In this document: piece after piece, positions 2,156 to 46,989 of the stretch
Numbering within the stretch: the first letter of the stretch is position 1
Layout: each line of letters begins with the position of its first letter
Assembly: GCA_021463465.1 (NCBI GenBank)
Contig: JAJTYH010000003.1
Location: 351,942 to 415,941, forward strand
Direction of reading: 5' to 3'
Source: a bacterium
GTDB taxonomy: Bacteria; Patescibacteriota; Dojkabacteria; SC72
Length of the DNA: 64,000 nt
Program-made: the position numbers and the translations under genes
Notes under the pieces: model-generated
What the model was told of the DNA's origin: nothing
Database searches by the model: none
Seen by the model: the letters and a program-made list of their open reading frames with translations, nothing else

Positions 2156-2243
2156 TTATTTCATTAACAGGGTACTTAGTATACATTGATTATACATACC
2201 CTCTGTGGTATGTTTAATCATCTAAAATTTTTCAAAGTTCAGG

Positions 2244-3269
2244 ATGTCACCTAAAAATATTAATCAAGATAATGAGAAGGCTACCCCTAAAGAAGCTCGT
2301 AGTAAAGCTATTGAACTGGCGATCTCTCAGATTGAAAAACAGTTCGGCCAGGGTTCGATTATGAGATTGGGAAGTAGAGAAAAGATAAACATTGCAGCTA
2401 TACCCACTGGGGCATTGTCGCTTGATATTGCGCTTGGTATAGGAGGAATTCCAAGAGGAAGAATCATTGAGATTTATGGACCCGAATCTTCTGGTAAGAC
2501 TACTCTTGCTCAGCATATTTTAGCTGAAGCTCAAAAACTTGGTGAGAATGTAGCCTTTATCGATGCTGAGCATGCTTTTGATCCTACGTATGCTAAGTCA
2601 ATTGGTGTTGATATTGATAATCTTTTCATATCTCAGCCTGATTTTGGTGAACAAGCATTAGAAATTTTAGAGACATTGGTAAGATCAGCAGGTTTTGGTG
2701 TTATTGTTGTTGACTCAGTTGCTGCACTTACCCCAAGAGCTGAGATAGAAGGGGAAATGGGAGATAGTCATATGGGACTTCAAGCTCGTTTGATGTCGCA
2801 AGCTCTGCGTAAGGTTACTGCTATCGCCAGCAAGACTAATACTACAGTTATATTTCTTAACCAGTTGCGTATGAAGATTGGAATTATGTTTGGTAATCCA
2901 GAGACCACTACTGGTGGAAATGCGTTAAAGTTTTATGCTTCGGTTCGAATGGATATTCGTCAGAAAGAAAAAATTATGAAGGGAGATGAGGTGATTGGCC
3001 ATATTCGTGTCGTTAAGATTGTGAAGAATAAGGTTGCTCCTCCTTTTAGAGAAGCTTCTTTTAGTATCATTTATCCATTTGGAATTGATAAAGAAAGTAG
3101 TATCTTGGATGCCGCTCTCGCCAAAGGAATTCTTACCAAATCAGGGGCTTGGATTAGACATGGTGAAACACAGTTAGCACAAGGTCGTGAGTCTGCGATT
3201 GAGATGTTGAAAAATGACAAGGATTTAGCAAGAAAATTAGAAAAAGAAGTTAGAGCAACGATTAAGTAG
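2244..3269 (+). CDS. recA: recombinase RecA
   Basis: 341 aa. Walker [12 protein letters not shown], the block [25 protein letters not shown], and the L2 region [30 protein letters not shown] are all RecA hallmarks. Confidence 0.97.
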
Positions 3270-3925
3270 TGAAGATAACTAAAATTGAGTTACAGCAGAA
3301 GAGGCGGAGATTCAATCTCGAAATTGAAGGTAAGTTTGTCTGCTCTGTTTCTGCAACAACACTGACTCATTATAATCTGTATAAGGGTAAAGAGATTACA
3401 GAGGACGAAATTCAACAGATTGTTGATAAGGAGGTTGAAAATCGTTTCTTTGATAGGGCGGTTGCTCTACTTAGCGCACGTCTTAAAAGTCGTTGGCAAG
3501 TCACGCAATATTTGAACACTCTTTTTATTAAGAAGAAAGGGTTATGGTTTGGTAAAGATTTTCCTAATCAAGTAGGTGTAACTGAAAGTGTTTTGTCCAG
3601 ACTTGAAAAATTAGGATTAATAAATGACCATGAGTTTGCCAGAGCATTTGTTGAAGGTAGAATCAGAAGTAGACCCAGAGGAGGCTCGCAAATTATTGCT
3701 GAGCTTCTATCTAAAGGTATATCTAAAGAAATAGCTAAGACTGTTGTGTACGAAATATTGCCAGATAATGATGATATGATATTTAGAGTATTTAGAAAAA
3801 AGTATCCAAATCAAACTCTGGATTTAAAGAATCGTAAACAAATAGATTTTCTTTTAAGAAAAGGATTTGATTGGGATGATATATCTAAACTATCCAAACA
3901 ACTTAAAGATGACTCTCAAGAGTAA
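3269..3925 (+). CDS. recX: RecA regulator RecX
   Basis: 218 aa immediately after recA. The GTG start overlaps the recA stop (TAGTG). Three-repeat helical composition with LGLINDHEFARAFVEGRIRSRPRGGSQIIAELLSKGIS is typical of RecX. Confidence 0.7.
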   Translation: MKITKIELQQKRRRFNLEIEGKFVCSVSATTLTHYNLYKGKEITEDEIQQIVDKEVENRFFDRAVALLSARLKSRWQVTQYLNTLFIKKKGLWFGKDFPNQVGVTESVLSRLEKLGLINDHEFARAFVEGRIRSRPRGGSQIIAELLSKGISKEIAKTVVYEILPDNDDMIFRVFRKKYPNQTLDLKNRKQIDFLLRKGFDWDDISKLSKQLKDDSQE

Positions 3926-5624
3926 TAAAGTATGGAAAGTTGGAGCTGACCTTGATGCTACTAATCATGAAAAGATCATTACTGCATTACTTGAAAGTAG
4001 AGGAATAAAAGGCAAAAAAGCTGTCAATAATTTCTTAGACCCTAGTTTAGATCAAGTACCTGATGCTTCACTTCTTTTTGGTTGTGAGCAAGCAGCACAG
4101 CAAATACTTGAAGCTATTAAATCGTCGAAAAGTGTTTGCATACATGGAGATTTTGATTGTGATGGAGTTTGTGCAACAGCAATACTCTGGGACTTTTTAT
4201 ACAGAGAACTTGCTGATTTCTTGAAGGTTAAAATAAACGTTACTCCATATATTCCAAGTAGGGTAGATGAGGGGTACGGTTTGTCCGAGTCTTCGATTCA
4301 GGCTATGAAATCACAAGGTGCTCAGTTAGTGATAACAGTTGATTGTGGAATTCGAGATAGGAAATTAATTGAAAAACATACCTCAAAGGATTTCACTGTG
4401 ATAGTAACAGACCATCATGAACCTCCAGATGATGTGACAAAATTCGAATCTGTAGTTGTTCACCCGATGTATCCTGGAAGCGAATATCTCTATCCCAAAA
4501 TATGTGGAAGTGCGGTAGCTTTTTTGTTGACTCAATCGATACGTAAGGCTGCGGGTATGGAGTACGAATTGAAAGAGAGTGTAAAAGGTTTGGATTTAGT
4601 AGGTTTAGCTACTGTTACTGACATGATGCCCCTAGTAGAAGTTAACAGAGTTTTTGTTGTTTGGGGATTAAAACAGATGAAGCAAGATACTCGTTTGGGT
4701 TTGGATGCACTTTTAAGGTTGGCAACAGTAGATAAAACTAAATTGGATAGTTATCACTTCGGTTTTGTTATTGGCTCTAAGATCAATGCTGCGGGTAGGA
4801 TAGGGCATGCTATGGATGCCTTGCGCTTACTTTTAGCGCCTAATCCTAAGAGTGCAATGGAATACAGTAGTAATTTGCATAACCTGAATCTTAAAAGGCA
4901 GGTAAGTACAGAGGAAATATTGAAAGAGGTAGAAGGACAACTTAAAGAATTTGAAGATAAAAAGTTGGTATTTTTAACTGGAAAAAACTGGCATGAAGGT
5001 GTTATTGGCCTAGTGGCTGGACGTATTTTTGAGCGTACTGGTAAACCAACGATTGTAGTTACTTTATCGGGTAAGGAAGTTAAAGCTTCTGCCCGTAGCG
5101 GAAGTCAATTAAATATTACACAATTACTCAAGAAGCATTCTAAATATCTTGAGAAATATGGAGGGCATGCACAAGCGGCAGGGATGTCCATTAAACCCGA
5201 ATTACTTGAAGAATTTAAAACTAAACTCACAAAATACTGTGAGTTGAAACTTTCAAAGGATGATTTGAAATCTGAACTTGAAATTGATTTACGCATAGAG
5301 CCCCAAGATATAACTCAAGAGCTTTTTTCCACGCTAGAGAAGTTAAAGCCATATGGATTTGGAAATGCAAAACCAACTATTCTAATAGAAGACTTAAGTA
5401 TTATTGCAAAGCAAATTTTGAGTGGAGGTAAGCATATGAAGCTAAGCGTTGAAAAGGAAGGAAACCAAACTAATCTCTTAATGTTTAACTGTGATGAAGA
5501 TATCCCTTTATTATCCAATAATGACAGAATTTCGGTTGTTGGAAATATCTCATCAAGCGAATGGAACGGTAAAATGAATTTGGAATTTCAAGTCAGAGAG
5601 TATAAGTTGGGGGGTATGCAGTGA
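3909..5624 (+). CDS. recJ: single-stranded-DNA-specific exonuclease RecJ
   Basis: DHH-family motifs IHGDFDCDGVCATAILW and VTDHHEPP, DHHA1 motif GGHAQAAGMS, and a C-terminal OB region. The start is chosen at ATG 3909 (MTLKSNKVWKV), overlapping the recX end. The track ORF starts at 3867. Confidence 0.88.
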   Translation: MTLKSNKVWKVGADLDATNHEKIITALLESRGIKGKKAVNNFLDPSLDQVPDASLLFGCEQAAQQILEAIKSSKSVCIHGDFDCDGVCATAILWDFLYRELADFLKVKINVTPYIPSRVDEGYGLSESSIQAMKSQGAQLVITVDCGIRDRKLIEKHTSKDFTVIVTDHHEPPDDVTKFESVVVHPMYPGSEYLYPKICGSAVAFLLTQSIRKAAGMEYELKESVKGLDLVGLATVTDMMPLVEVNRVFVVWGLKQMKQDTRLGLDALLRLATVDKTKLDSYHFGFVIGSKINAAGRIGHAMDALRLLLAPNPKSAMEYSSNLHNLNLKRQVSTEEILKEVEGQLKEFEDKKLVFLTGKNWHEGVIGLVAGRIFERTGKPTIVVTLSGKEVKASARSGSQLNITQLLKKHSKYLEKYGGHAQAAGMSIKPELLEEFKTKLTKYCELKLSKDDLKSELEIDLRIEPQDITQELFSTLEKLKPYGFGNAKPTILIEDLSIIAKQILSGGKHMKLSVEKEGNQTNLLMFNCDEDIPLLSNNDRISVVGNISSSEWNGKMNLEFQVREYKLGGMQ

Positions 5625-7268: not shown

Positions 7269-9161
7269 GTGAAAAACATGGAACGTATATATACAACACA
7301 GACGTTAGAGAAAGTTGGAGAAAACGTTAAGCTGGCTGGTTGGGCTGAAACTGTCCGAAACCACGGCAAAATTGTCTTTATTATGCTTCAAGATATTAAA
7401 AGTGTTATTCAATGTGTCGGTGGCGAAGAGTTGCAGGATGTTTCGGAAGGATATGTTATTGAGATTGAAGGTAAAGTTAAAGAACGTCCTGAAAAAATGG
7501 TAAATAAAGGGATTGAGACAGGTACAGTTGAGGTTGAAGTCACCTCGTGTAAAATTTTAGCCAAAAGCAAAGAATCACCAATTCCACTAAACACAACTGG
7601 TTATGAAATAAACGAGGAAATGCGTCTTAAGTATAGGTACCTCGACCTTAGAAGAAATAGGATGCGGAAGATTATTAAATTGCGCTCTGAATTCGCACAT
7701 GTTGTTAGGAATGAGTTTGTGAAGCATAATTTCATAGAAGTTGAAACTCCTATGTTAGCTAAAGCTACAAAAGAAGGTGCACGCGACTTTATTGTTCCAT
7801 CAAGATACAACCCTGGAAAGTTTTATGCCTTACCTCAAAGTCCACAACAGTATAAGCAGATTCTTATGACAGCTGGTGTTGAGAGATACTTCCAGTTAGC
7901 AAGATGTGTCAGAGATGAAGATCTCCGCTCAGACCGTGGTTATGAATTTACTCAGATCGACTTAGAGATGAGCTTTGTTAATCGAGAAATGGTAATGAAC
8001 ACAACAGAATCAATCATCAAAGCCGCAGTAAATGCTGTTGGAGGAAAGATAAAGGCAGATCCATTCCCTGTAATTGACTACAAGGATGCAATGAAGAAAT
8101 ATGGTGGTGATAAGTTTGACTTAAGGACTGACAAAGAGAAAGAAGAAGGGGTTCTAGCTTTTGCATGGGTAATAAATTTTCCATTTTTTAAGAAGGTAAA
8201 CAAGGAGGACAGTGCAGAGGTTGATGACGGCAAGAGTGGTTGGGTTTTCACGCATAATCCATTCAGTAGACCCACACCAGAATTTGAACAACAGCACTTG
8301 AAGGGCGAAAATCCTGGGGAAATTTTAACTACGCAGTACGACTTGGTTTGTAACGGATACGAAGTAGGTGGAGGTAGTATTAGAGCGCATGAACCAGAGA
8401 TGCTTCGTGCTACTTACGAGATTATGGGTTACAGTGAGCAAGAAATTGAAGATGGTATCGGTCATATGCTTAGAGCTTTCGAACTTGGTACACCACCTCA
8501 CGGAGGTATAGCTTTCGGATTGGACCGTTTGGTTATGTTATTGGCAAACGAAAGTTCGCTTAAAGAGGTAATAGCATTTCCAATGACTTCTAAAGGTTCA
8601 ACTGCAGTTATGGATGCTCCTTCCATTGTCCAGCAAAAAGATTTAGCTGCATTACATTTAGATGTCACTGACAAAGGTGACTGGGCGGTTAAAAGTATTA
8701 AAGCAAAGTTGGACAATTTGGAAATTAAGTATGACTATTTGGAGCATGCGGAAGTTAGAACTTCAGAAGAAGCTGCAAAGGTTAGAAATGTTCCTTTAGA
8801 ATACGGTGCAAAAGCTATGGTTTTAGCTTCAAAGGAGTATGAGAATAAGCTTGCAATGGTGGTTATACCTGGTGACAAACTATTGGATTTAGAGAAGGTT
8901 AAAAAGGCTTTGGGTGAAGAGTTTGATGTAGCGCCAAAAGAGTTAGTTGAAAAGCGAACTGGAATTAAAATGGGTGGAGTTCCACCATTCGGTAGACTGT
9001 TTGGGATTGAAGTTTACATGGATGGAAGCTTTTGGAGCAAAGAGAAATCAGCCTTCAATTGTGGAAGACGTGATGCTTCAATTATAATGAACGCTAATGA
9101 CCTTATTAAAGCCGTACAACCCAACAAGATTTCGGAAGGCTCAAGCTTCACCAAAGAATAA
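7269..9161 (+). CDS. aspS: aspartate--tRNA ligase (GAD-less, archaeal-like core) with C-terminal YbaK/ProX-type aminoacyl-tRNA deacylase domain
   Basis: Class II motif 2 is FQLARCVRDEDLRSDRGYEFTQIDLEMSF and motif 3 is GGGSIRAHEPEMLRA...PPHGGIAFGLDRLVMLL. Only about 160 aa separate them, so there is no GAD insertion. The C-terminal roughly 160 aa (about 8676-9161) carry KAMVLASKEYENKLAMVVIPGDKLLDLEKVKKALG...RTGIKMGGVPPFG, close to YbaK (KTLLVAVNGD...LAVAVTPV...LDLKKVAKALG...GYLVGGISPLG). The track start GTG 7269 has an alternative at ATG 7278. Confidence 0.92.
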   Translation: MKNMERIYTTQTLEKVGENVKLAGWAETVRNHGKIVFIMLQDIKSVIQCVGGEELQDVSEGYVIEIEGKVKERPEKMVNKGIETGTVEVEVTSCKILAKSKESPIPLNTTGYEINEEMRLKYRYLDLRRNRMRKIIKLRSEFAHVVRNEFVKHNFIEVETPMLAKATKEGARDFIVPSRYNPGKFYALPQSPQQYKQILMTAGVERYFQLARCVRDEDLRSDRGYEFTQIDLEMSFVNREMVMNTTESIIKAAVNAVGGKIKADPFPVIDYKDAMKKYGGDKFDLRTDKEKEEGVLAFAWVINFPFFKKVNKEDSAEVDDGKSGWVFTHNPFSRPTPEFEQQHLKGENPGEILTTQYDLVCNGYEVGGGSIRAHEPEMLRATYEIMGYSEQEIEDGIGHMLRAFELGTPPHGGIAFGLDRLVMLLANESSLKEVIAFPMTSKGSTAVMDAPSIVQQKDLAALHLDVTDKGDWAVKSIKAKLDNLEIKYDYLEHAEVRTSEEAAKVRNVPLEYGAKAMVLASKEYENKLAMVVIPGDKLLDLEKVKKALGEEFDVAPKELVEKRTGIKMGGVPPFGRLFGIEVYMDGSFWSKEKSAFNCGRRDASIIMNANDLIKAVQPNKISEGSSFTKE

Positions 9162-28952: not shown

Positions 28953-29013
28953 GCGCCTGGGAATGTTAGCTCAAAATCCGCCCACTGGCAATCGGTATTC
29001 TGTATAATTGTGT

Positions 29014-29880
29014 ATGGATTTGAAATTTACACAGAACTTTCTGACAAATGAGCCTTTAGTTAAAAGGTTGGTTGAAACTTCAAATATTGCGCAAGGGGAT
29101 ATTGTTGTGGAGATTGGAGGTGGGAAAGGTGCCATAACCAAGCATTTGGTTGAAAAGGTTGGTGGCACTGGGAAAGTTATTGTTGTGGAATTAGATGCTC
29201 AATTGGCTAAGCAACTGCGTGAAAAGTTCAACAATGTTGAAATATTACAACAAGATGTTAGGGACTTTGAGTGGCCAAATAAATACTTCAAGGTATTTTC
29301 AAATATTCCTTTTAATATTACTTCGAACATCTTCAATTCATTGTTAAACCCTGAATTAGAACTTCATACCGCTTATTTAATTATGCAAGAAGAAGCTGCT
29401 TTGATGTATGGAGGTAGGGCAATTGGATCTTCAGTAGAAACTCTGAAGTCTTTCTTAGGTGCGCCTTTCTATGACTTTACAGTCGTTCATAAGTTTATTG
29501 CATCTGATTTCTCTCCCAGACCCAACGTTGATGTTGTTTGTTTAAAAGTTGAACGAAAGACTTCACCGCTTGTTTCTTTAGAGAGATTTGAAAAATATTG
29601 TGACTTTTTAGCTTTTGTGATCTCAAGCCCTTACGGTAGAGGTAATTGGGAGAAACTTTTTACTTCTAAACAACTGCAATACATGTCAAAGCTGTATAAA
29701 CTTAAGTTTGGTGTAGGCATGAGTGGACAACCTCAGGATGCAGTAATAGGGTCCTTTCTGTCTTTTTTGGAGAAGGTGTCAGAGTTAAATAAGAAAAAAG
29801 TTGATGGAGCATTTTCTACTCTTCAATATCAACAAATGAAACTGTCAAAGATTAATAGGACTCGCGCTACAGGATATTGA
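29014..29880 (+). CDS. rRNA adenine N6-methyltransferase, Erm/KsgA family with Erm-like motifs
   Basis: FTQNFLTNE (QNFL box), motif I VEIGGGKGAIT (GxGKG as in ErmC FEIGSGKGHFT, versus GPGLGALT in KsgA), motif IV FSNIPFNITS (Erm GNIPYNIST), and FSPRPNVDVVCLKV (Erm FHPKPKVNSSLIRL). The track ORF starts two codons earlier, at 29008. Confidence 0.75.
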   Translation: MDLKFTQNFLTNEPLVKRLVETSNIAQGDIVVEIGGGKGAITKHLVEKVGGTGKVIVVELDAQLAKQLREKFNNVEILQQDVRDFEWPNKYFKVFSNIPFNITSNIFNSLLNPELELHTAYLIMQEEAALMYGGRAIGSSVETLKSFLGAPFYDFTVVHKFIASDFSPRPNVDVVCLKVERKTSPLVSLERFEKYCDFLAFVISSPYGRGNWEKLFTSKQLQYMSKLYKLKFGVGMSGQPQDAVIGSFLSFLEKVSELNKKKVDGAFSTLQYQQMKLSKINRTRATGY

Positions 29881-29933
29881 AGTTTCTTGCCAGTTGGTAT
29901 ACGCTGTATACTAGTAATATATCCGATTTAAAT

Positions 29934-30284
29934 ATGGCTAAACCCTCAGTCAACTTTCTACGATCAGAAAACCTCGAATTTAATACTGGAATTGACCTGA
30001 ATCGTGAATTGGTGAATCATCCTCTCTCTACATTTTTTCTCAGAGTCGCTGATGAAATCCCTGGAGAAGATTCAATTATAAGAGGTGATGTATTGGTAGT
30101 TGACCGTTCTGAAGTCTTAGTTGAGGGTAAAAACTTAGTTTATTCTGACGGTGATAGATTGCTTTGGGGGCAAGTAATCAAAAAGGTCGACGGTTTTTGG
30201 ATTAGGAGAGGTGAACAGTATTTCAAATTGAATGAAGAAACTGAAGTGTGGGGTAATATAACTTATATTATTCGCAAAGTATGA
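29934..30284 (+). CDS. UmuD'-like protein (S24 peptidase fold, apparently lacking catalytic Ser and cleavable N-terminus)
   Basis: GIDLNRELVNHPLSTFFLRVADEIPGEDSIIRGDVLVVD...QVIKKV aligns with E. coli UmuD [39 protein letters not shown]...TVKKL. The Ser of GDSM aligns to Ile, while the Lys is conserved. Only 19 aa precede the IDLN block, against about 41 in UmuD, with no Cys-Gly/Ala-Gly site. The track start is TTG 29877 and ATG 29934 is preferred. The stop overlaps the next gene (ATGA). Confidence 0.65.
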   Translation: MAKPSVNFLRSENLEFNTGIDLNRELVNHPLSTFFLRVADEIPGEDSIIRGDVLVVDRSEVLVEGKNLVYSDGDRLLWGQVIKKVDGFWIRRGEQYFKLNEETEVWGNITYIIRKV

Positions 30285-31513
30285 AAAAAGTCTTTATGTT
30301 AGTTGATTGCAATAATTTTTTTGTGTCATGTGAGCGGGTTTTCAATCCGAAATTGCGAAGTGTCCCCACAGTAGTACTTTCAAATAATGAAGCCTGTGTT
30401 ATTGCCAGATCTAATGAAGCGAAGGATATAGGGATAAAGATGGCTGAGCCAGTCTTTAAGTGCCGCGATATCCTGAATTTCTTTGATGTGAAATGTTTTT
30501 CTACTAATTTCGCTCTTTATGGAGATTTATCTTCTAGGGTTATGAGGATTTTGGAAAGTTTTTCACCTAAAGTTGAAAGCTACTCTGTCGACGAAGCCTT
30601 CTTAGATATCACGGATTTAGAAGAGGCTAACTACTTCGATTTTGGTAAAGCTGTAGGGGATCGGGTTTACAAATATGTCGGCATACCCGTTTCCGTAGGT
30701 ATTGCGCCTACTAAAACCCTAGCCAAGATTGCATCCAAACAAGCCAAAAGAAGTGGAGGAGTTTGTGTCCTTTTAGAAGGGGTCAATACAGTTTTGAAAG
30801 CTACACCTGTAGGGGAAGTGTGGGGTATTGGTTGGGCTTCAACCAAGAAGCTAAGGCAAAATAGCGTTCATACCGCTTATGATTTCGTCAATCAAAAACC
30901 TTCATGGATTGTAAATCGGTTTGGTGTGGGAGGAGCTCGGACTTACTGGGAACTTAAAGGCAAGAGTGTCTCTGAAGTAAATAATGCTAAAGCTTTGCCT
31001 AAATCTATGGCTCACACGCGCTCTTTTAAGAATCCAATTACCGAGAAATCTGAAATGCGCAAACGTCTAGTTAATTTTGCGAGTAGCGTAGCTGCGGCCT
31101 TGAGGGCAGACAATCTTTTATGCCATGAGGTTATTGTTTTTCTTAAAGGAGATAAAAACCGTGACGTCTACTATTCTAACGGCGTCACCTTGCCGTTGGA
31201 AAATTACAGTAACCTGCGAACTGACATTGTGAAGTTGGTTGGGAAAGGATTGGATCGTTTGTTCAAATCCGGTGAAAGGTATAAAAGAGCTGGGATTGTA
31301 GCGATTAATATCATCTCATCTAAAGATAATAATTCGCTCTTTGAGAACAATACAAAACGAAAGGAAGTTGCAGAACGTGCGGTCGATCTCTTAAATGCTA
31401 AATGGGGGCGAACAATTACGGTGGCTTCAGATATGTTGGTGAAACCAGAGAAAACGTTTAGCAGGAGTCCTGAGTTCACTACTAAGTGGCAGGAGTTGGC
31501 TTTAGTTTTTTGA
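30281..31513 (+). CDS. Y-family translesion DNA polymerase (UmuC/DinB-like)
   Basis: N-terminal catalytic blocks LVDCNNFFVSCE and SVDEAFLDIT (acidic triad), with palm/fingers/little-finger length of 410 aa. Confidence 0.85.
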   Translation: MKKVFMLVDCNNFFVSCERVFNPKLRSVPTVVLSNNEACVIARSNEAKDIGIKMAEPVFKCRDILNFFDVKCFSTNFALYGDLSSRVMRILESFSPKVESYSVDEAFLDITDLEEANYFDFGKAVGDRVYKYVGIPVSVGIAPTKTLAKIASKQAKRSGGVCVLLEGVNTVLKATPVGEVWGIGWASTKKLRQNSVHTAYDFVNQKPSWIVNRFGVGGARTYWELKGKSVSEVNNAKALPKSMAHTRSFKNPITEKSEMRKRLVNFASSVAAALRADNLLCHEVIVFLKGDKNRDVYYSNGVTLPLENYSNLRTDIVKLVGKGLDRLFKSGERYKRAGIVAINIISSKDNNSLFENNTKRKEVAERAVDLLNAKWGRTITVASDMLVKPEKTFSRSPEFTTKWQELALVF

Positions 31514-38434: not shown

Positions 38435-41400
38435 ATGCTAAGAAAGTTATTTAAACTCCCCAAGAGATATTTTTCTCGATTTATTTCTATTTATCTTGCA
38501 CTTTATCTTACAGTAAGTCCTGCATTAGCCTTCGCAACTACGGAAGGGCTTTTGGTGGATGAAGGCGCTCAAAGTACACCTGTAGTAGCGGAAGAAGAGA
38601 CGGTGCAGACTCCTGAGCCCACAGTCGAAGAAGAATCATCAGAAGTTACGCCTGAACCAGAAGTTGAACCTGAGGTTGTACCGGAGCCAAAGGTAGATGA
38701 ACCTGAAAATGATGAGGTTGATGTAGACGTAGTTAAGTCAGCGGATGGCGAACTTGAAGTTGGTGTGATTGAAACTACACAGTGTTTGGAAAACTCTCTC
38801 AACCCTTGTATTGGAACAGATAAGGAAGATTACGCACCGCATGAGGTAGTTACGTTGAGAGGCCATGGTTACTTACCAGAAAGTCGATACCTACTCATTA
38901 TTACTTCAGCTAATCAACCTCCTGTACGTTTTGAAGCTGAAATTATTACAAACAGCATTGGTGGTTTTAATTACAGTTATCAATTGGATGGTAGATATCG
39001 TCCTGATTACGCAGTAGAGGTTAGGAGTTTGCTCGGTGATATTATTGCAACAGATACATTTACTGATAGTCGTACTATCAATTCTGCTACAGTGAACGGC
39101 GTTGCGAGTATAACCGTCGCTCAGGGTACAACAATATTAGGTGGGGTTAACGTTTCTACAAATGGAAGTGGAAATAATGATGATTGGGCAAGTACGGGAT
39201 GGAGAATCTCTACAAGTGCTCCTGGTGGAGTTAGTTGTGATAATTTCGAGCCCGACATTACCGACGATGTAATGGGTGCTACTAAAGCCTTTAATATGAC
39301 AGCTCCTAATACACCAGGTATTTATAATGCATACTTTATTGCTTACAACAACGATAGTTGTAGCGGTGGAGCAAGTGCAGTCTACGTTCTTGAAAATGCT
39401 GTTACAGTGACAGGACCTGATCTTACAATTTCAAAAAGCAATGATGTAGGAGGTGTTGTAAATGTTGGAGGCTCATTTAACTGGATTATTACGGTTAAAA
39501 ATGAAGGGACTTCATCTGCCATCTTTAACAATGAAGATATTTTGTCGGACTCATTACCAAATGATGGGGTATCGTTTGTTGATACAAGTGATTTGGTAGT
39601 AACAACTGCGGGGGGAGTAACTGGTTCTATTGATTGCGATATTAACAGTAGTACACTTGTTTGCGACGATAACAGCGGTGGCTCTACAGTTGTAATTCCT
39701 GCTGGCGGTTCGTTTACTGTTACAGTCGAAGTGATTGCAAATGAAATTAGAACTTTATCTAACCCAAGAAAAGGTGGAAAGTGTGAAGTTGACCCAAATG
39801 AAGAAGTCGCTGAACAAAATGAGCATAATAATAAGTGTAATGACTCAGTGAAAGTTAACCCAGATACTGGAGTTACTAATCCACCGTTAGGACAATTTTG
39901 TGGCTTAGACATTGCTCTTGTTCTTGATAATTCTACAAGTATAAGCTCAGGAGAGTTGACTCAGATGAAAGCTGCAATGACTGCGTTTACATCCGCATTC
40001 AATGGTACACCTACCGAGTTTTCCGTCTCAAGATTCGCCACTACTGCATCGGTCGTTCAATCATTTACTTCCAATATAACTGCAGTTAACGCTGCAATTA
40101 ATGGAATTCCTTCAGGCGGAGGGTATACAAACTGGGAAGATGGTTTATTTAAAGGTCAAAGTACTTTGACAAATAGACCTACATACCCTGATTTGATGAT
40201 TTTTGCTTCCGATGGTAATCCAAATAGGGTTGATAACGGTACAGATGCAAGTGAGTCGCAAGCAGTAAGCGAAGCTAAAATCATTGCAAATAACATAAAA
40301 ACTGCAGGGGTGAGGATACTTGCACTTGGGATAGGTGATGAGCTGGATACACCTAATCTACAGACTATCTCTGGTAATAATGTTAATACTGGTATTAGTT
40401 CTGATGTTATAACTTCGGACTTCGCGACCCTTGCTGCCGATTTAGCTGATTACGCTATTCAACTTTGTGGAGGAACTATTAATGTAAAAAAATTGGTTGA
40501 CGGTAATCCTGCTGCTAACTGGGTATTTACTATTGATGGTGATCAGCATATTACAGGAGCTGATGGCTTTATCCCTTCAGTTGAAGTAGATAATGGTACT
40601 TACAGTGTAGTTGAGACTCCAAAGAATGGATTTACATTCCAATCTGCCGTTTGTACGATCAACAATCAGTCAGTAGGTTCACCGATTACTAATGGCGTAG
40701 GAGCAATCTCAGTAGATTCAAACGATATTGTGACCTGTACATTTAACAATATTACGAACGCATTCTGTGGCGATGGAGTTGTGAACCAGCAGTCCGAGCA
40801 GTGTGACAGTGGAGCTTCCAATGGTATTGCTTGTACTCCAACTTATGCTAACAGCTGTAATTACTGTAGTAACACCTGTCAAACCGTGAATATTCATGGG
40901 CCATACTGTGGTGATGGAATCAAGAATGGTCCTGAGCAGTGTGATGGCTCAGATGGTGTATCTGGGTCTGATTTCGCATGTACACAGAGTTGTGAGTTGG
41001 ATTTGGTTGAAAAGAAAGTAATGATCTGTCATGCGACAAGTAGTAATACTAATCCTTATGTCTCTAATGAACCTGCTAAATCAGCTGATGTAGCGGGTCA
41101 TGATGGCCATAATGGACCAGTTTGGTCTGCAGGAATTGATGGCGATTGGGGAGATATTATACCTCCGTTTAATTATGTAGGAGGTTCATATCCAGGCAAG
41201 AACTGGACAGCTGAGGGTCAAGCGATTTGGAATAATCAATGCGAAATTGAAAAGGGAACTATTGTTGTACAAAAGACCACTGTACCAGCAGGCAATCAAA
41301 CCAACTTTGATGTTTCTATAACTGGGGATGGATATATTTTTGAAAATGATAAAGGTACTGTAAGTGATTCACAGGATCACTCATTTATCGTTGAACCAGG

Positions 41401-44400
41401 AACTTATTCAGTTGAAGAGGATGCGGTTTCAGGCTGGGAAATTACGGGCAATACCTGTGATGATGTTACAGTTGCAAACGGAGAGACTAAGTATTGCCAG
41501 ATTACTAACACTAAAGTAACTGATGTGTCAATCACAAAATCGGACACACCTGATCCAGTATTAACTGGTGGTTTGTTGACTTATATTGTGACGATTGAGA
41601 ATGAAAGTGATACTAATGCAGAGAATGTTGTAGTAACCGATAACCTTCCTGCCGCATTTATGGCCATTTTCTCGGTAATACCAAGTCAGGGTTCATGTTC
41701 AGATACAACCCTTCCTTCTCCTGTGGTTTGTGAACTTGGAACTTTAGCTGCAGATGCCAGTGCCACAATTGAAATTAAAGGCTTAGCTTTTGGCATAGGA
41801 AGTATTGAGAATAATGCTTCAGTTACAACTTCGACTTACGAGATTGATTTGAAAGATAACACTACCGTTGAGGATACGACTATTGTAGATCAACCATCAG
41901 CGTGTGTTGAAGGCCAGAGATGGGCTAGTAGTGTAGTGAGTGCTTCGCAAGGTTTGCAAAAAGATGGATCGACCGTACTTTTGTCCCGCAGTGTACCTGC
42001 GAGTGCGATTGGTTTACCTGATGCTGCCACTAATCCTGATACAGGCTTTTATAGTTTAGGTAAGGGTGGTTCTATCGTGGTGGCGTTCACCTCACCAGTT
42101 GTTAACGGTGAAGGTACAGACATTTCAATTCATGAAGTGACTAATGGAAGAGAGAATTACCCTGAAGAAACCGCAAGTGTAGAGGTCAGTACGGACAATG
42201 GAGGAAGCTGGCACAATGTAGGTAGTGCATCAAGTTTGTCCACTAATGGTGTGACTTTGATTGATATAGCACCTTACACAGGTGTAACGCATGTTAGAGT
42301 GACTGATACTACTAACTTTAACCTCAATCCAAATTCGAATGCTGATGGATTTGATTTGGACGCAGTTGATGTCGACTGTAAGGCTTCTATAACCGTGATT
42401 AAAGATGTTGATATCAATGGTGATGGACAAGTTGATAAGACTAATTCTACTGATTGGGCTTGGGATATCAATGGAAGTGGTAATTATGAGACTGGAAGCA
42501 AAGTAGATGTCCAACCTGGATCATATGTGATTTCTGAAAGCCAGAAGCCTTCATACCATGTAGTTTCCTTAGTTTGTGGTCAGACTAACTACGGTGCAGT
42601 TGAGAGTCAGCAGATAAGCGTCTCGGAAGGTGAAGAACTTACTTGTACTTTTACTAACAGTGTCGATACTGGTTCTGTGAAAGTTAACAAGAGAGTTGAT
42701 CTAAATGGTGATGGAGTGTGGGGAGGTGGAAATGAGAATAGTAAGGCATATATCAGCTCCCTTGGATTTAGCTGGACTTTAGATGCAGTTGGTTCAATTA
42801 ACTTCGGCGATACCGTTACTCCTGTAATCACAGGTGCTCATCAAGTGAATGAGAATAGTCTCGAAGGCTACCACTTTGTTGCATGGTATGTAACGGGTGA
42901 AGAGGGACGTTCATGCACAAATCCTAATGGAACAACCGTACCTGTTGATATTAATGTCGTGAAGAACTCAACAGCTGAAATCACTTTGTGTAATGCAAGG
43001 GATATGGGTCAAATTACTATTGTTAAGGATTCAGTTAACAATGATGGAAAAGACTTTAACTTTTCAACTAGTACTTTGGGGTCATTTATATTAGATGATG
43101 ATGGTAATAATGGAAATCAGCACTCAAATACCAAAGTGTTCAATGTACCTTCGGGAGCATATTGGGTACGTGAGAATAGTGCCTCGGGCTGGAAACTGAC
43201 TGATTTGGTTTGTATCGGAGATGACAATTCTGTTGTTGATATCGAAAATCGAAGAGCTGATTTAGACCTAGATTTGAATGAAAATATTACCTGTACCTTT
43301 ACCAATACTAAGTTAGCAGAGATCAAGGGAACGAAGTTCAACGATCGAAACGGTGATAATCACCAAAGCTTACTCTCAGGAGAGACTTGGATGAACGGCT
43401 GGAAGATTTTTATTGATGAAAATCACAATAGCAGTTATGACACTGGAGAACTTACAGATACAACCAGTGGTTGGTTCTTTATGGATTTAGGAAAGTATGA
43501 TTTCGAGGGTTTGTTACCGGGAACTTATACGGTTTGTGAACAAATGCAAGAAGGTTGGTATGCCTCAGGTCCAGTCTGTCGTGAGATATTACTTGAGCCA
43601 GGTGATAGGAAAGAGGTGAATTTCGGTAATCACCAATCGCTAAGAATTATCGCTTCAAAGATTGTCTGTAACAGTGAAGATGACTTACCTAACTGGGGAA
43701 GTGGAGCAGGTAATATCAATTCAAATACTGCAACCAATTTCGTTGCGAATAACCCAGATTGTCAGTTAGTTTCTGACTGGCAGTTCCAGTGGGGATATGA
43801 TGGTGAAGTAGATAAGTACGGTAATGGAGACCAGTTAGGTTTGGCTCCGGAACCATGGCAGATTCTTGGATCGACGGATGCTAGTGGTGTAGCTGACATT
43901 GAGATTATGACAACTCCTGAAGGAAAAGGACTTAGTAACTTGTGGGTACGTGAGAGTTTAATGCCAGGGTATGTGGCATTCAGTTATCCACCAGCACAAC
44001 CTGAAGAAAATCCATACTCGGCTGAAATGTATTGTCACAAAGATGTCCTTTATTATGACAATTTTGATCGAATTGAAGAGGTAAAGTTTGGTGAGACCTA
44101 TTACTGTGTAGCCTTCAATGCTCTAAAGACTGGTGATATCACCGTTACTAAAGAGGTTGTAGATCCAGATGGTAATCCAGTTGAAGATACATCTACTCTC
44201 TTTACAGTGAATCTTAATGAAAGCAATCCACAACAGCTTACTGATGGTCAGTCAGTGGTTTACGGTGACTTGCCAATCGGTACATATACCGTGACTGAGG
44301 ATCCATCCGGAAACTATACTTTTGATAGTTTCGAAGGGGATGAAAATAGCGAAATAGAAGGAGCGCAGGTTACGGTTACTGAGGAAGGTAATACTAATGT

Positions 44401-46369
44401 GAAGGTAATCAATAAGCAGATTAAGGGTAAAGTCATTGTGCACAAAGATGTAGTAGATGCTAACTTTGACTCCGAAGCTACTAGCGACGATCTTTTTGAA
44501 GTAGTACTTGGTGGTGAAGGGTTAGAAGGCGCAGTGAAGTTTATTTCTGATGCACAGAGTGAACCAGTGGTTGCCGAATATGAGCTTAATCCCGGTGAAT
44601 ATAGCTTTACTGAGAATAATCTTCCCGGTTATAACTTCTTGGGTTGTTACATTGAAGAAGTTGAAGCAAGACAAGTTGGAATCGAAGAAAATGTCGCGAT
44701 TTATGATACGCAGGTCGAAGTAGAACTTGGTAGCAATCAAACCAAGGAATATACCTGCGTCAACCAGGCAGTGGGGGCACAGTTGCAACTGGAAAAAACT
44801 AACAATGTCCTTGGAGTTGATCAAATTGCAGGTAATGTTGTTCAGTATACTTTGACAGTAACTGCACCAACTGATGACGAAGTTCCAGAGGATGTGGTAT
44901 TAACAGGATTAAGTGATAACCCTTATGTCTTAGAAGATGTGAAGGTGGTAGATTTGACTCCAGAGGGTTTCACCTACGTTAACGGTACCTGGACAGCAAG
45001 TTCCGATATTAGAGGTGATATCAAAGCTTCAAATGTAACTACAGAGCCTACTTACGCTTCACCTGGTACATGGAACTTAGGTGATATGGTGGAAGGTGAG
45101 GTAGTAACACTTACGTACCTTGCTACGATTTCTAACGCTCAAGATGCAGGTTTATACAAAGACTTAGCATGGACTCAAGGAACTAATGTATTGGGAAATA
45201 GCATTTATGGCACTGCAGCCTTCGGCCTCTTTGCTGGTACACAAGTTAATGTGATTGATGATTTGGAAGAGGGTCAAGCTGAGGTGCTTGGTGTGTCATT
45301 GCCAAACACAGGTGCTAATATAATCTGGGCAATATTTGCTTTGGCTTCCTTCTCATTGGGTGTAATCCTAGTTGGATATGGACTTGGTAAGAAGAGTCGC
45401 AAGATTTCCATCTTGGTGGCCGTCTTGATACTGTTGGGATTGGTTGGATTTTCACGACCTGAAGATGTATACGCGGCTTCTAGCCTTGCCGTACGAATCG
45501 AACAGCCAGAAGCTTTGTCAAATGACAATACAATTAAGGTAGGGTTTGTAGCACTTGATTTAGAAGGTAGGGATGTGAGCGTACAATGTCTTAAGAAAGG
45601 ACCTGGAGACGGTAGTTTCGTAGACTTTGGGACAACTATCAACTTAGGAAGTGGTGGAAATAGCGGTGATTGTAACGTAGGCAGCGCTATACTAAATGCA
45701 GATGGTACTTACGAATTCAAAGTTGAGGCCACAGCAGAAGAGGAAGTAATTGAGTCAGAAGCAGCGTCAATGACATTGGACACAGTAGGTCCTGATATGA
45801 TTACTGGGTATGAGAAGAGTAAGAATGCTTGTGAATATACTTTGAACTTAACAACAGCAAGTGACGGACAGACCTCAGCAGTACAGATTTTCAGATCGAC
45901 TGAGCGAACCTTTGTAGCTAACAGTTCAACACTTGTGGTTGAGCTTCCTGCCACACCTGGCCAGGTAATTGAATATGTTGATAATGTATCTAATTGTAAT
46001 CTTGAGTATTTCTATGCCATTAGAGCTTTGGATAATGCTGACAATAGCTCAGACTTTGTAGCTGACTCACTTGTTGAGGTCACTCCAGGAGTTGTCGATG
46101 AAGATAGACAAGAAGGAGAAGATGGAGAAGTTGCTGGTAGTGAGACTGAATCAGACGACGGTGCGGTAAAGGGTGAAGCAGATAACGAAGAGGATGAAAA
46201 TCAAGGAAATACCCCGGGAGAAGAGACCAAAGTGACTTCAACTGGAGGAGACAATAATGTAATGTGGATTGTAGGAATTATTTTAGGCGGAGCAGTTGTA
46301 TGGCTATTGACCCGACTCGGGATTATACAATCAATCTTCCAGTGGATAATGATGAAGCTAAGAAAGTAA
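38435..46369 (+). CDS. giant multi-domain cell-surface protein (signal peptide, EP-rich acidic linker, DUF11 repeats, vWA domain, Cys-rich CGDG repeats, Cna-B/prealbumin-like repeats, internal LPNTG sorting signal, C-terminal TM)
   Basis: 2,644-aa single ORF. Signal peptide MLRKLFKLPKRYFSRFISIYLALYLTVSPALA. vWA block LDIALVLDNSTSIS...IFASDGNPN. DUF11-like blocks LTISKSNDVGGVVNVGGSFNWIITVKNEG and VSITKSDTPDPVLTGGLLTYIVTIENES. Repeats CGDGVVNQQSEQCD and CGDGIKNGPEQCD. The sorting signal LPNTG is at 45299-45313, followed by a TM and KKSRK. A further 351 aa follow, ending in a second TM plus KLRK. Confidence 0.85.
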   Translation: MLRKLFKLPKRYFSRFISIYLALYLTVSPALAFATTEGLLVDEGAQSTPVVAEEETVQTPEPTVEEESSEVTPEPEVEPEVVPEPKVDEPENDEVDVDVVKSADGELEVGVIETTQCLENSLNPCIGTDKEDYAPHEVVTLRGHGYLPESRYLLIITSANQPPVRFEAEIITNSIGGFNYSYQLDGRYRPDYAVEVRSLLGDIIATDTFTDSRTINSATVNGVASITVAQGTTILGGVNVSTNGSGNNDDWASTGWRISTSAPGGVSCDNFEPDITDDVMGATKAFNMTAPNTPGIYNAYFIAYNNDSCSGGASAVYVLENAVTVTGPDLTISKSNDVGGVVNVGGSFNWIITVKNEGTSSAIFNNEDILSDSLPNDGVSFVDTSDLVVTTAGGVTGSIDCDINSSTLVCDDNSGGSTVVIPAGGSFTVTVEVIANEIRTLSNPRKGGKCEVDPNEEVAEQNEHNNKCNDSVKVNPDTGVTNPPLGQFCGLDIALVLDNSTSISSGELTQMKAAMTAFTSAFNGTPTEFSVSRFATTASVVQSFTSNITAVNAAINGIPSGGGYTNWEDGLFKGQSTLTNRPTYPDLMIFASDGNPNRVDNGTDASESQAVSEAKIIANNIKTAGVRILALGIGDELDTPNLQTISGNNVNTGISSDVITSDFATLAADLADYAIQLCGGTINVKKLVDGNPAANWVFTIDGDQHITGADGFIPSVEVDNGTYSVVETPKNGFTFQSAVCTINNQSVGSPITNGVGAISVDSNDIVTCTFNNITNAFCGDGVVNQQSEQCDSGASNGIACTPTYANSCNYCSNTCQTVNIHGPYCGDGIKNGPEQCDGSDGVSGSDFACTQSCELDLVEKKVMICHATSSNTNPYVSNEPAKSADVAGHDGHNGPVWSAGIDGDWGDIIPPFNYVGGSYPGKNWTAEGQAIWNNQCEIEKGTIVVQKTTVPAGNQTNFDVSITGDGYIFENDKGTVSDSQDHSFIVEPGTYSVEEDAVSGWEITGNTCDDVTVANGETKYCQITNTKVTDVSITKSDTPDPVLTGGLLTYIVTIENESDTNAENVVVTDNLPAAFMAIFSVIPSQGSCSDTTLPSPVVCELGTLAADASATIEIKGLAFGIGSIENNASVTTSTYEIDLKDNTTVEDTTIVDQPSACVEGQRWASSVVSASQGLQKDGSTVLLSRSVPASAIGLPDAATNPDTGFYSLGKGGSIVVAFTSPVVNGEGTDISIHEVTNGRENYPEETASVEVSTDNGGSWHNVGSASSLSTNGVTLIDIAPYTGVTHVRVTDTTNFNLNPNSNADGFDLDAVDVDCKASITVIKDVDINGDGQVDKTNSTDWAWDINGSGNYETGSKVDVQPGSYVISESQKPSYHVVSLVCGQTNYGAVESQQISVSEGEELTCTFTNSVDTGSVKVNKRVDLNGDGVWGGGNENSKAYISSLGFSWTLDAVGSINFGDTVTPVITGAHQVNENSLEGYHFVAWYVTGEEGRSCTNPNGTTVPVDINVVKNSTAEITLCNARDMGQITIVKDSVNNDGKDFNFSTSTLGSFILDDDGNNGNQHSNTKVFNVPSGAYWVRENSASGWKLTDLVCIGDDNSVVDIENRRADLDLDLNENITCTFTNTKLAEIKGTKFNDRNGDNHQSLLSGETWMNGWKIFIDENHNSSYDTGELTDTTSGWFFMDLGKYDFEGLLPGTYTVCEQMQEGWYASGPVCREILLEPGDRKEVNFGNHQSLRIIASKIVCNSEDDLPNWGSGAGNINSNTATNFVANNPDCQLVSDWQFQWGYDGEVDKYGNGDQLGLAPEPWQILGSTDASGVADIEIMTTPEGKGLSNLWVRESLMPGYVAFSYPPAQPEENPYSAEMYCHKDVLYYDNFDRIEEVKFGETYYCVAFNALKTGDITVTKEVVDPDGNPVEDTSTLFTVNLNESNPQQLTDGQSVVYGDLPIGTYTVTEDPSGNYTFDSFEGDENSEIEGAQVTVTEEGNTNVKVINKQIKGKVIVHKDVVDANFDSEATSDDLFEVVLGGEGLEGAVKFISDAQSEPVVAEYELNPGEYSFTENNLPGYNFLGCYIEEVEARQVGIEENVAIYDTQVEVELGSNQTKEYTCVNQAVGAQLQLEKTNNVLGVDQIAGNVVQYTLTVTAPTDDEVPEDVVLTGLSDNPYVLEDVKVVDLTPEGFTYVNGTWTASSDIRGDIKASNVTTEPTYASPGTWNLGDMVEGEVVTLTYLATISNAQDAGLYKDLAWTQGTNVLGNSIYGTAAFGLFAGTQVNVIDDLEEGQAEVLGVSLPNTGANIIWAIFALASFSLGVILVGYGLGKKSRKISILVAVLILLGLVGFSRPEDVYAASSLAVRIEQPEALSNDNTIKVGFVALDLEGRDVSVQCLKKGPGDGSFVDFGTTINLGSGGNSGDCNVGSAILNADGTYEFKVEATAEEEVIESEAASMTLDTVGPDMITGYEKSKNACEYTLNLTTASDGQTSAVQIFRSTERTFVANSSTLVVELPATPGQVIEYVDNVSNCNLEYFYAIRALDNADNSSDFVADSLVEVTPGVVDEDRQEGEDGEVAGSETESDDGAVKGEADNEEDENQGNTPGEETKVTSTGGDNNVMWIVGIILGGAVVWLLTRLGIIQSIFQWIMMKLRK

Positions 46370-46989
46370 TGCCTTGGTCTTTGAAAGCAGGGATTGCTCT
46401 GATAGTTATTGGAGCAGTCCTAGCCTTTCTGAACTTTCACACGATTCTATTTAATGAAGTTAATTATCTGGTGAATCAGCCTCAACCTGATTATGCTGAT
46501 GTCGAAATTAGTGAAAGTGACAATACAGAGGTTAAAGACAATATCGCATTCTTAAGTCCAAACTTTGGAATTGCAATCCCTAAGATTGGAGCTAATGCTA
46601 ATGTAATTTTAGACGTTGACCCTTTTAGTTATAATCAGTACACAGAGGCATTAAAAGGAGGCGTAGCACATGCTAAAGGTACCCCCGTGCCAGGTCAGAG
46701 TGGAAATATTTTTATGTTTGCCCATTCTGCAGTAAATTTTTACGAATCGGGGAAGTATAATGTTAATTTCTATCTGCTACCTAAGCTGATAGAGGGTGAT
46801 AAGATTTATGTCTCTTATCGAAAAAAGATTTATACATACGAGGTTGAAAAGGTAAAGATTGTTAGTCGGACAGATGTACACTATTTATCTAAACTTGAAG
46901 AGTACAACACCTTAACACTTATGACATGCTGGCCAGCTGGTTTGAATATAAACAGGGTTATAGTTATTGCAAAACAACTCAACCTTTAG
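46369..46989 (+). CDS. sortase (transpeptidase)
   Basis: Catalytic TLxTC motif TLMTCWPAG, His in NIFMFAHSAV, and N-terminal TM anchor. The ATG overlaps the stop of the giant gene (TAATG). The track ORF 46264 start lies inside the upstream gene. Confidence 0.8.
   Translation: MPWSLKAGIALIVIGAVLAFLNFHTILFNEVNYLVNQPQPDYADVEISESDNTEVKDNIAFLSPNFGIAIPKIGANANVILDVDPFSYNQYTEALKGGVAHAKGTPVPGQSGNIFMFAHSAVNFYESGKYNVNFYLLPKLIEGDKIYVSYRKKIYTYEVEKVKIVSRTDVHYLSKLEEYNTLTLMTCWPAGLNINRVIVIAKQLNL

Follow-up and report, generated by a model that had tools for sequence, protein, structure and literature searches.

DNA polymerase V (Pol V) is the main mutator polymerase of the SOS response, and the RecA*-mediated cleavage of UmuD is presented in textbooks as its key post-translational gate. 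The 64-kb stretch of contig JAJTYH010000003.1 analyzed here (the window; G+C content of 38%) contains a small umuD′-like gene directly 5′ of a umuC-type polymerase gene, and in its product neither the protease residues nor the cleavage site of UmuD can be recognized by alignment. The locus raises the question of whether a Pol V-type operon can dispense with the cleavage gate and, if so, what its small subunit does. The first-pass annotation of the window had described a umuD′C-like operon whose UmuD homologue appears pre-activated, with no catalytic serine, no cleavage site and an N-terminus already at UmuD′ length, and had suggested that the checkpoint is bypassed or replaced, for example by transcriptional control through an upstream GTATAC dyad. 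The locus was compared with other loci (numbered with L) and homologous proteins (numbered with P). The analysis points, with a probability of about 0.68, to a hard-wired, non-proteolytic UmuD′-like subunit of an SOS-repressed Pol V operon, which would be competent as made and would assemble like UmuD′.

The small protein, its lost dyad and its N-terminal arm

Both open reading frames (ORFs) of the operon exist and are joined by a 4-nt ATGA overlap (Table 1), as first described. A small gene also lies directly 5′ of umuC in L001, L003, L015, L016 and L014. The 116-residue protein that is read from the ATG start is identical to a protein from a metagenome-assembled genome (MAG) in NCBI, 'hypothetical protein IT417_03085 [bacterium]', and the N-terminal pattern M-x-x-x-x-[VI]-N-F-L-[RK]-S-E is conserved starting at this ATG. 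In a start-codon comparison, L001 carries an in-frame stop codon two codons 5′ of its ATG, and no alternative start is present in L003. A TTG at position 29877 was considered as a longer umuD′ start and was rejected; it is not conserved in the orthologues, is part of the −35-like hexamer and shares bases with the stop codon of the preceding gene.

The small protein is homologous to UmuD, and its predicted fold is S24, of the UmuD′/LexA type. It matches the NCBIfam model of the Pol V UmuD subfamily (NF007621; cut-off of 110 bits) with an E value of 5.6e-10 and 39.3 bits, and members of its clade reach E values down to 2.6e-15. Its scores with Pfam Peptidase_S24 (PF00717; 14.9 bits, under the gathering threshold of 23.3) and with the phage HumD family (NF051876; E value of 8.7e-7 and 29 bits, under the cut-off of 120 bits) also lie below the respective thresholds. 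BLASTP aligns the protein with the syntenic canonical UmuD of L014 at 30% identity (E value of 2e-16). The AlphaFold2 model of the protein has a predicted local distance difference test (pLDDT) score of 80 and consists of a β-rich core and a disordered segment at residues 6–16 (pLDDT <50). The top Foldseek matches of the model in the PDB are the UmuD′ structures 1ay9, 8gmt and 1umu, with template-modeling (TM) scores of 0.67–0.78 (best match, TM 0.69/0.74 and E value of 7.5e-6), followed by the C-terminal domains of LexA and lambda cI; the alignment behind the model included UmuD homologues, and the model is not fully independent evidence. The IDLN helix and the C-terminal strand W-G-x-V-T-Y-[IV] are strongly conserved, and the GD-hLVVD strand is conserved as well.

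On the alignments, the Ser-Lys dyad, the scissile bond and the 24-residue pro-peptide of UmuD are absent from the window protein. In a phmmer comparison with UmuD and UmuD′ sequences of the PDB, residues 19–68 align without gaps to UmuD residues 37–85 and place Ile42 at the Ser60 position. None of the alignments puts a serine there; three MAFFT alignments, which included E. coli UmuD, P1 HumD and many homologues, place Gly79 at the position of Lys97. In other clade members, the Ser60 position is occupied by I, L, D or P or is lost in an 8-residue deletion, and Gly79 is invariant throughout the clade (G-Q/K/E). No Ala-Gly or Cys-Gly scissile bond is found in residues 1–20 when the protein is aligned to UmuD; V6-N7 aligns with Cys24-Gly25, and VNFLRSE occupies the place of CGFPSPA. 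The UmuD homology over the IDLN core, the S24 fold, the substitution of the catalytic serine by isoleucine, the loss of both dyad residues and the missing cleavage bond, all claimed or proposed for checking in the first-pass annotation, are borne out by these comparisons. Lys83 and Lys84 (IKKV) were considered as a displaced catalytic lysine; they are irrelevant because no clade member has a nucleophile at position 42 or close to it, and L015 carries a serine at position 83.

The claim that the N-terminus is already at UmuD′ length holds in part. The pro-peptide is absent, and 19 residues precede the IDLN block, compared with 13 in UmuD′ and 37 in UmuD, but the window protein exceeds UmuD′ by six residues (and falls 18 short of UmuD) and has an arm motif of its own. 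The arm, MAKPSVNFLRSE, shares with the UmuD′ sequence GFPSPA only the phenylalanine at the F26 position. Residues V6, N7, F8, L9, R10 and S11 do not vary among the three closest clade members (P0001–P0003). In the nine clade sequences, the motif reappears with conservative substitutions as [VI]-x-F-[LM]-[KR]-[ST]-E.

The UmuC partner and the GTATAC box

The partner polymerase is, to judge from its domains and conserved residues, an intact Y-family polymerase of the UmuC subfamily. Besides Pfam IMS and IMS_C, it gives a weak DUF4113 match. Of the NCBIfam models, UmuC fits it best (298 bits; subfamily cut-off of 431 bits), compared with 169 bits for the best DinB model, and its full-length identity with E. 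coli UmuC is 36%. The D6, D101 and E102 residues are kept, the steric-gate tyrosine (Y11) is replaced by phenylalanine, and NNSLF is found at the position of the E. coli clamp motif QLNLF. The C-terminal S..TT motif (S408..T413 tail) is conserved. A helix-strand segment aligned to the RecA-contact stretch of E. coli UmuC, in which R367, S370 and Q372 cross-link to RecA (PMC11791011), is also conserved, with invariant D378 and N381 residues. Because this region is kept, RecA dependence is probably not wholly abolished.

The interface between UmuC and the small subunit is expected to differ from that of Pol V. In the published Pol V model, the final residues of UmuC join UmuD′ as an extra strand, the UmuD′ arm sits in UmuC, and the UmuC terminal carboxylate contacts the UmuD′ residues S36, T71 and K73, which correspond to UmuD S60, T95 and K97 (PMC11791011). 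Since all three positions are replaced in the window protein, its interface with the UmuC tail must deviate from this model. The UmuC proteins of the derived clade end in F or S (..ALVF in the window, and ..YLVS, ..CSVF and ..PFVS), whereas the last UmuC residue is basic (K, R or H) in E. coli, L014 (..MRVH) and further canonical operons (L020 and L022–L024). The former active site and the UmuC C-terminus thus give hints of co-variation, with few independent events behind it. Two UmuC proteins (L018 and L019) from the candidate phyla radiation (CPR) have a canonical UmuD partner, yet their terminal residue is also non-basic.

The GTATAC-N3-GTATAC box upstream of the umuD′-like gene is the sole exact match to this pattern in the window (Table 1). 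TATAC-N3-GTATAC is invariant 5′ of umuD in six of six loci (the window, L001, L003, L016, L015 and L014), and the flanks diverge. The TTG of the −35-like hexamer is likewise invariant in the six orthologous upstream regions, where a conserved TTGA stands 17 nt 5′ of TAC(G/T/C)(C/A)T. With this spacing, the box would overlap the putative −10 element, which is TACGCT at 29900–29905 in the window. A scan for consensus promoters and terminators called neither the proposed promoter nor a terminator, and the promoter assignment comes from conservation alone.

A related site is found in the recA promoter, and TAC-N3-GTATAC occurs in only two places in the window, at the umuD′ and recA sites (0.36 matches expected). 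The recA-recX-recJ order is kept in four Dojkabacteria loci. Orthologous recA promoters carry GTATAG-CGA-GTATAC (L031, on the same contig as L014), GTGTAC-TGC-GTATAC (L032) and GTATAT-ATT-GTATAC (L033), each abutted by a conserved TTGCAT, and a box variant with one or two mismatches is present in four of five recA promoters. Because a box common to recA and umuDC is a signature of an SOS regulon, GTATAC-N3-GTATAC is most likely the SOS box of this lineage and, by its distribution, older than the loss of cleavage. The proposal that the dyad is an operator gains support from the footprint in six loci and from the recA-promoter sites. The suggestion of a bypassed or replaced checkpoint needs to be divided: the cleavage layer appears to have been dropped, but the same box stands beside a cleavable UmuD (L014/L031), so that transcriptional control would be ancestral and not a replacement. 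Among the direct-repeat LexA motifs that PMC7739468 gives as examples, it cites a study of the LexA network of Patescibacteria.

Two perfect GTATAC-N3-GTATAC boxes lie 44 nt apart 5′ of umuD′ in the derived-clade genome L001 (3444–3458 and 3488–3502), and L014, which encodes a cleavable UmuD, has only one box, which deviates by a single mismatch (ATATAC). In a very small sample, this difference may point to a stricter repression of operons that have lost the cleavage gate. The gene for a conserved 196-residue protein 5′ of recA (1565–2155) was considered as the repressor gene, which is not supported; its product gives no helix-turn-helix or S24 signal. This protein has no Pfam or NCBIfam match and is encoded directly 5′ of the recA box in the window (+ strand) and also in L031 (1826–2422), L033 (1824–2414) and L034 (1817–2407).

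Table 1. Positions of the operon, its control elements and the related recA locus in the window
Feature	Position	Strand	Details
umuD′-like gene	29934..30284	+	ATG start; 116 aa; TGA stop at 30282-30284; labelled hypothetical protein in NCBI
umuC-type Y-family DNA polymerase gene	30281..31513	+	410 aa; IMS and IMS_C domains
ATGA stop-start overlap of the umuD′-like gene and umuC	30281..30284	+	4 nt; identical junction in L003, L016 and L014
Codons of the N-terminal arm, aa 1-19, MAKPSVNFLRSENLEFNTG	29934..29990	+	predicted to be disordered; V-N-F-L-R-S-E conserved in the clade
Ile42 codon (ATC) at the UmuD Ser60 position	30057-30059	+	phmmer and MAFFT alignments
Gly79 codon (GGG) at the UmuD Lys97 position	30168-30170	+	three MAFFT alignments
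Operator/SOS-box-like GTATAC-GCT-GTATAC	29897..29911	.	palindrome and 9-bp direct repeat; overlaps the putative −10
−35-like hexamer TTGAAG of the putative umuD′C promoter	29877..29882	+	inferred; overlaps the stop of the Erm-like gene
recA-promoter site of the same motif family, GGGTAC-TTA-GTATAC	2170..2184	.	60 nt 5′ of recA; probably marks another regulon member
recA (2244-3269), recX (3269-3925) and recJ (3867-5624) cluster	2244..5624	+	Pfam RecA (E 3.6e-132), RecX and DHH/DHHA1/RecJ_OB

Dojkabacteria relatives, proposed mechanism and rival explanations

The window most likely belongs to Candidatus Dojkabacteria (WS6; Patescibacteria/CPR). Its RecA is 75–83% identical to proteins assigned by their sources to Candidatus Dojkabacteria or candidate division WS6, and the nearest named relatives of the window UmuC are from Dojkabacteria. 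Relatives of the small protein at 45–47% identity are found in a common context of an ABC transporter gene (−), the small gene, umuC and LPG_synthase_TM (−). The L014 locus (JGI 3300037810 Ga0376277_0000042), part of a 792-kb Dojkabacteria contig, has the gene order of the window (umuD-umuC-LPG_synthase_TM-Methyltransf_21-PGA_cap) and encodes a canonical 128-residue UmuD with the cleavage-site sequence SAGFP, the GDSM and VKR motifs and a 14-residue pro-peptide. Because this positional orthologue is still canonical, the window form represents a derived loss within Dojkabacteria. The 108-residue protein of a further member, L015 (P0035), has in addition lost 8 residues from what was the Ser loop. 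The Saccharibacteria and Peregrinibacteria loci (L018 and L019) retain a canonical UmuD. An exhaustive search of 1.84 billion representatives with a hidden Markov model (HMM) returned just three 50%-identity clusters of the exact window type. A scan of genome contigs with clade-derived patterns found no relative, and a UmuC scan of these contigs found only distant loci of 30–42% identity, which served as comparison operons.

The small protein is under strong purifying selection, with a constraint above that of the polymerase. In the comparison of L003 with L016, the proportions of non-synonymous (pN) and synonymous (pS) differences in the small gene are 0.074 and 0.68, respectively, with 87% amino-acid identity, and those in the adjacent umuC are 0.215 and 0.70, with 69% identity.

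We infer a UmuD′-like activator role for the window protein. In the proposed mechanism, the box is occupied by an SOS repressor (most likely LexA), which holds the operon off; DNA damage would lead to derepression, and the small protein would be made in its final form. The protein presumably dimerizes through the conserved IDLN helix and the strand at the C-terminus, which are dimer-interface elements of UmuD′. The dimer would then bind UmuC's C-terminal tail and insert its conserved arm into UmuC, as has been proposed for UmuD′. The delay imposed by E. coli-type RecA* cleavage would be absent, LexA-type control would stay, and RecA binding by the conserved UmuC region would probably stay as well.

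Several observations weigh against this mechanism. The score with the curated UmuD model is far under its cut-off (39 versus 110 bits). The arm extends six residues beyond UmuD′ length and lacks GFPSPA, and even single-residue changes at the E. coli UmuD′ N-terminus shift mutagenesis (PMC11791011). The equivalents of S60, T95 and K97 are I, L and G. On the regulatory side, no S24/LexA gene other than the umuD-like gene was found in the 64 kb using an S24 HMM on six-frame ORFs, and the recA site departs from the box at two of 12 specified positions. A position weight matrix singled out only the umuD′ and recA sites in the window, with the umuD′ site on top at 21 bits and above all 20 shuffles, but the scan is partly circular, since the window sites are part of the matrix; the umuD′ site is one of its 11 training sites, and its score is inflated.

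A permanent UmuD-like brake, that is, an uncleavable protein that restrains UmuC or acts as a checkpoint or polymerase manager with no activation of translesion synthesis, is an unlikely alternative to the activator role. The missing dyad and cleavage site and the conserved extra length of six residues beyond the UmuD′ N-terminus speak for it, and uncleavable E. coli UmuD-S60A strongly lowers UV mutagenesis (PMC3901139). However, the window protein has counterparts for just six of the 24 pro-peptide residues, and UmuD residues 1–18, which fold over the C-terminal domain and contain partner and degradation motifs, are missing. A dedicated inhibitor would also be harder to rationalize than an obligate subunit, given that the protein is translated together with an intact polymerase under an SOS-box promoter and is the better conserved of the two. 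Moreover, phage HumD, which likewise has no encoded pro-peptide, is described in its annotation as complementing UmuD′.

No more probable than a brake is a repurposed partner resembling YolD, with a structural or stabilizing function (for example, shielding the UmuC tail from proteolysis), possibly a monomer and with a remodeled interface. The high conservation of the IDLN helix and of the C-terminal W-G-x-V-T-Y-[IV] strand speaks against it, as does the retention of an arm with a conserved phenylalanine at the F26 position. The changes at all residues that are proposed to hold the UmuC carboxylate (S60, T95 and K97) and the replacement of the basic last UmuC residue by F or S in the derived clade speak for it, and YolD and YqjX, which have an SH3-like core and no protease residues, are modeled as monomers (PMC12926913, PMC6511836). 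This alternative differs from the UmuD′-like subunit mainly in detail.

Proteolysis in trans, in which LexA, a second UmuD or a housekeeping protease trims the first residues and exposes the arm, is very improbable. The six extra residues end at V6-N7, the pair aligned with C24-G25, and E. coli UmuD is capable of intermolecular cleavage. Ala/Cys-Gly is absent, however, with nothing that resembles a recognizable site; residues 2–5 are poorly conserved, V6–E12 are conserved as one block, and a second S24 gene was not found in the 64 kb. The least probable explanation, a decaying umuD relic beside a self-sufficient UmuC, would fit the loss of the catalytic residues and the weak matches to curated UmuD models but is ruled out by a pN/pS of ∼0.1 or less together with an identity above that of UmuC in the L003/L016 pair, and length, start, ATGA coupling and motifs are kept among sequences that are only 45% identical.

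If the UmuD′-like subunit is the correct explanation, a free-living-type chromosomal umuDC operon has dropped the cleavage gate and yet keeps the subunit under strong selection, and the sister genome with the gate provides a natural before-and-after pair for the role of UmuD cleavage. The pair opens the questions of what the cleavage step contributes beyond timing, whether UmuC binding requires Ser60 and Lys97, which current models imply, and how mutagenesis is controlled in small CPR genomes. Because such proteins score under the UmuD model cut-offs and carry the label hypothetical, metagenomic counts of Pol V systems are too low.

Known systems, other lineages and neighboring genes

The window operon resembles that of E. 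coli UmuD/UmuD′ (MEROPS S24; NF007621) in its homologous S24 fold, in the position of the gene 5′ of and overlapping umuC and in an operator that overlaps the promoter. The IDLN helix, the GD-hLVVD strand, the WGxVTY strand and a disordered arm with a phenylalanine at F26 are also shared. The window protein differs from E. coli UmuD in having Ile for Ser60 and Gly for Lys97 and in lacking a Cys/Ala-Gly bond and the 24-residue pro-peptide, and its arm has NFLRSE in place of the GFPSPA of UmuD′. By its residues, it cannot be activated by RecA*-mediated self-cleavage, unlike E. coli UmuD. Phage P1 HumD (also N15 gp26 and phiKO2 Gp23; NF051876), the nearest precedent, is similarly UmuD′-sized and encoded without a pro-peptide, and its annotation reports a LexA site upstream. 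However, HumD starts at Gly25 (MGFPSPAADY) and keeps the Ser (ADSH) and Lys (IKR) residues, and it is phage-borne with no cognate umuC, whereas the window gene is chromosomal, vertically inherited, syntenic within Dojkabacteria and located beside its own umuC.

The YolD and YqjX partners of YqjW and UvrX in Firmicutes are also non-proteolytic small subunits that need no cleavage. They have an SH3-like β core and an N-terminal arm that is proposed to insert into the Y-family polymerase (PMC6511836, PMC12926913). They belong to another family, in contrast to the window protein, which is UmuD-derived and paired with a polymerase of the UmuC subfamily, and a Pfam search gave no YolD match for the window protein. 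The canonical UmuD of L014 is the positional orthologue and has the neighbors and the TATAC-N3-GTATAC box in common with the window but retains the cleavage site, GDSM and VKR, and its UmuC ends in ..MRVH instead of ..ALVF. Pol V, a natural UmuD′ (HumD) and non-peptidase S24 homologues are already known. The combination of a chromosomal gene, a cognate umuC, full loss of the dyad, an arm motif of its own, a cleavable sister orthologue and parallels in other phyla appears to be new; a literature search, itself incomplete, found no description of operons with a dyad-less or pre-cleaved UmuD partner.

Short Ser-less UmuD homologues were also found in other lineages, and each adjoins umuC. An abundant gut-metagenome clade (L008–L012; P0012 with 103 residues and P0014 in 569 blocks), which by gene context is probably from Bacteroidota, starts with MAFPSPAQDY, approximately the mature UmuD′ N-terminus; Ser60 is replaced by Ala, and ∼25 internal residues are missing. 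Its genes (e.g. L008:6001–6312 and L009:5971–6273) lie directly 5′ of a gene for a UmuC-like Y-family polymerase of 443–449 residues. Spirochaete MAGs (L027 and L028) encode a 116-residue MAGETGFPSPAQ... protein with GRHL replacing GDSM, and a gammaproteobacterial MAG (L025) encodes a 107-residue form with GNAH; the spirochaete and gammaproteobacterial genes each abut or overlap umuC. Among the top clade-profile matches, about half lack Ser60 and/or Lys97, in a list that is biased because the query itself lacks both. A tentative generalization, held at somewhat less than even odds, is that loss of UmuD self-cleavage is a recurrent route that was taken independently in at least four lineages beside umuC (Dojkabacteria, the Bacteroidota-like clade, spirochaetes and the gammaproteobacterial MAG), with co-evolution of the cleft and the UmuC C-terminus in Dojkabacteria. 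If true, Pol V would be able in nature to dispense with its RecA*-cleavage checkpoint.

Further features were observed among these homologues. The 90-residue gene call of P0014 skips an in-frame upstream ATG, from which MAFPSPAQDY is restored. Two TAAGCA-N3-TGCTTA palindromes, presumably the operator of the spirochaete lineage, lie 5′ of the spirochaete umuD′-like gene (L027:2520–2660 and L028:2500–2642). Proteins of 220–285 residues (P0036–P0041) contain two tandem UmuD-like S24 domains per chain, with an AGFPSPA arm on the first domain only; P0038 and P0040 have no serine in the first domain and keep GDS in the second. These tandem proteins look like covalently fused UmuD dimers, which would fit the asymmetric subunit use in Pol V models.

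Among the neighboring genes of the window, an Erm-like 23S rRNA methyltransferase gene (29008–29880, +) lies directly 5′ of the umuD′ promoter, and its stop overlaps the −35-like hexamer. The Erm-like protein scores 177 bits with NCBIfam Erm23S_rRNA_broad versus 117 with KsgA, and the gene is confined to the window species, being missing at the equivalent position in L001, L015 and L016. The product of a 2644-residue ORF (38435–46369, +), which is followed by a sortase gene (46264–46989, +), is likely a sortase-anchored giant surface protein of the CPR-episymbiont type. The aspartyl-tRNA synthetase (7269–9161, +; NF001750, 571 bits) has a C-terminal YbaK/EbsC-type editing domain at residues ∼483–619, an aminoacyl-tRNA editing fusion that looks unusual for this synthetase.

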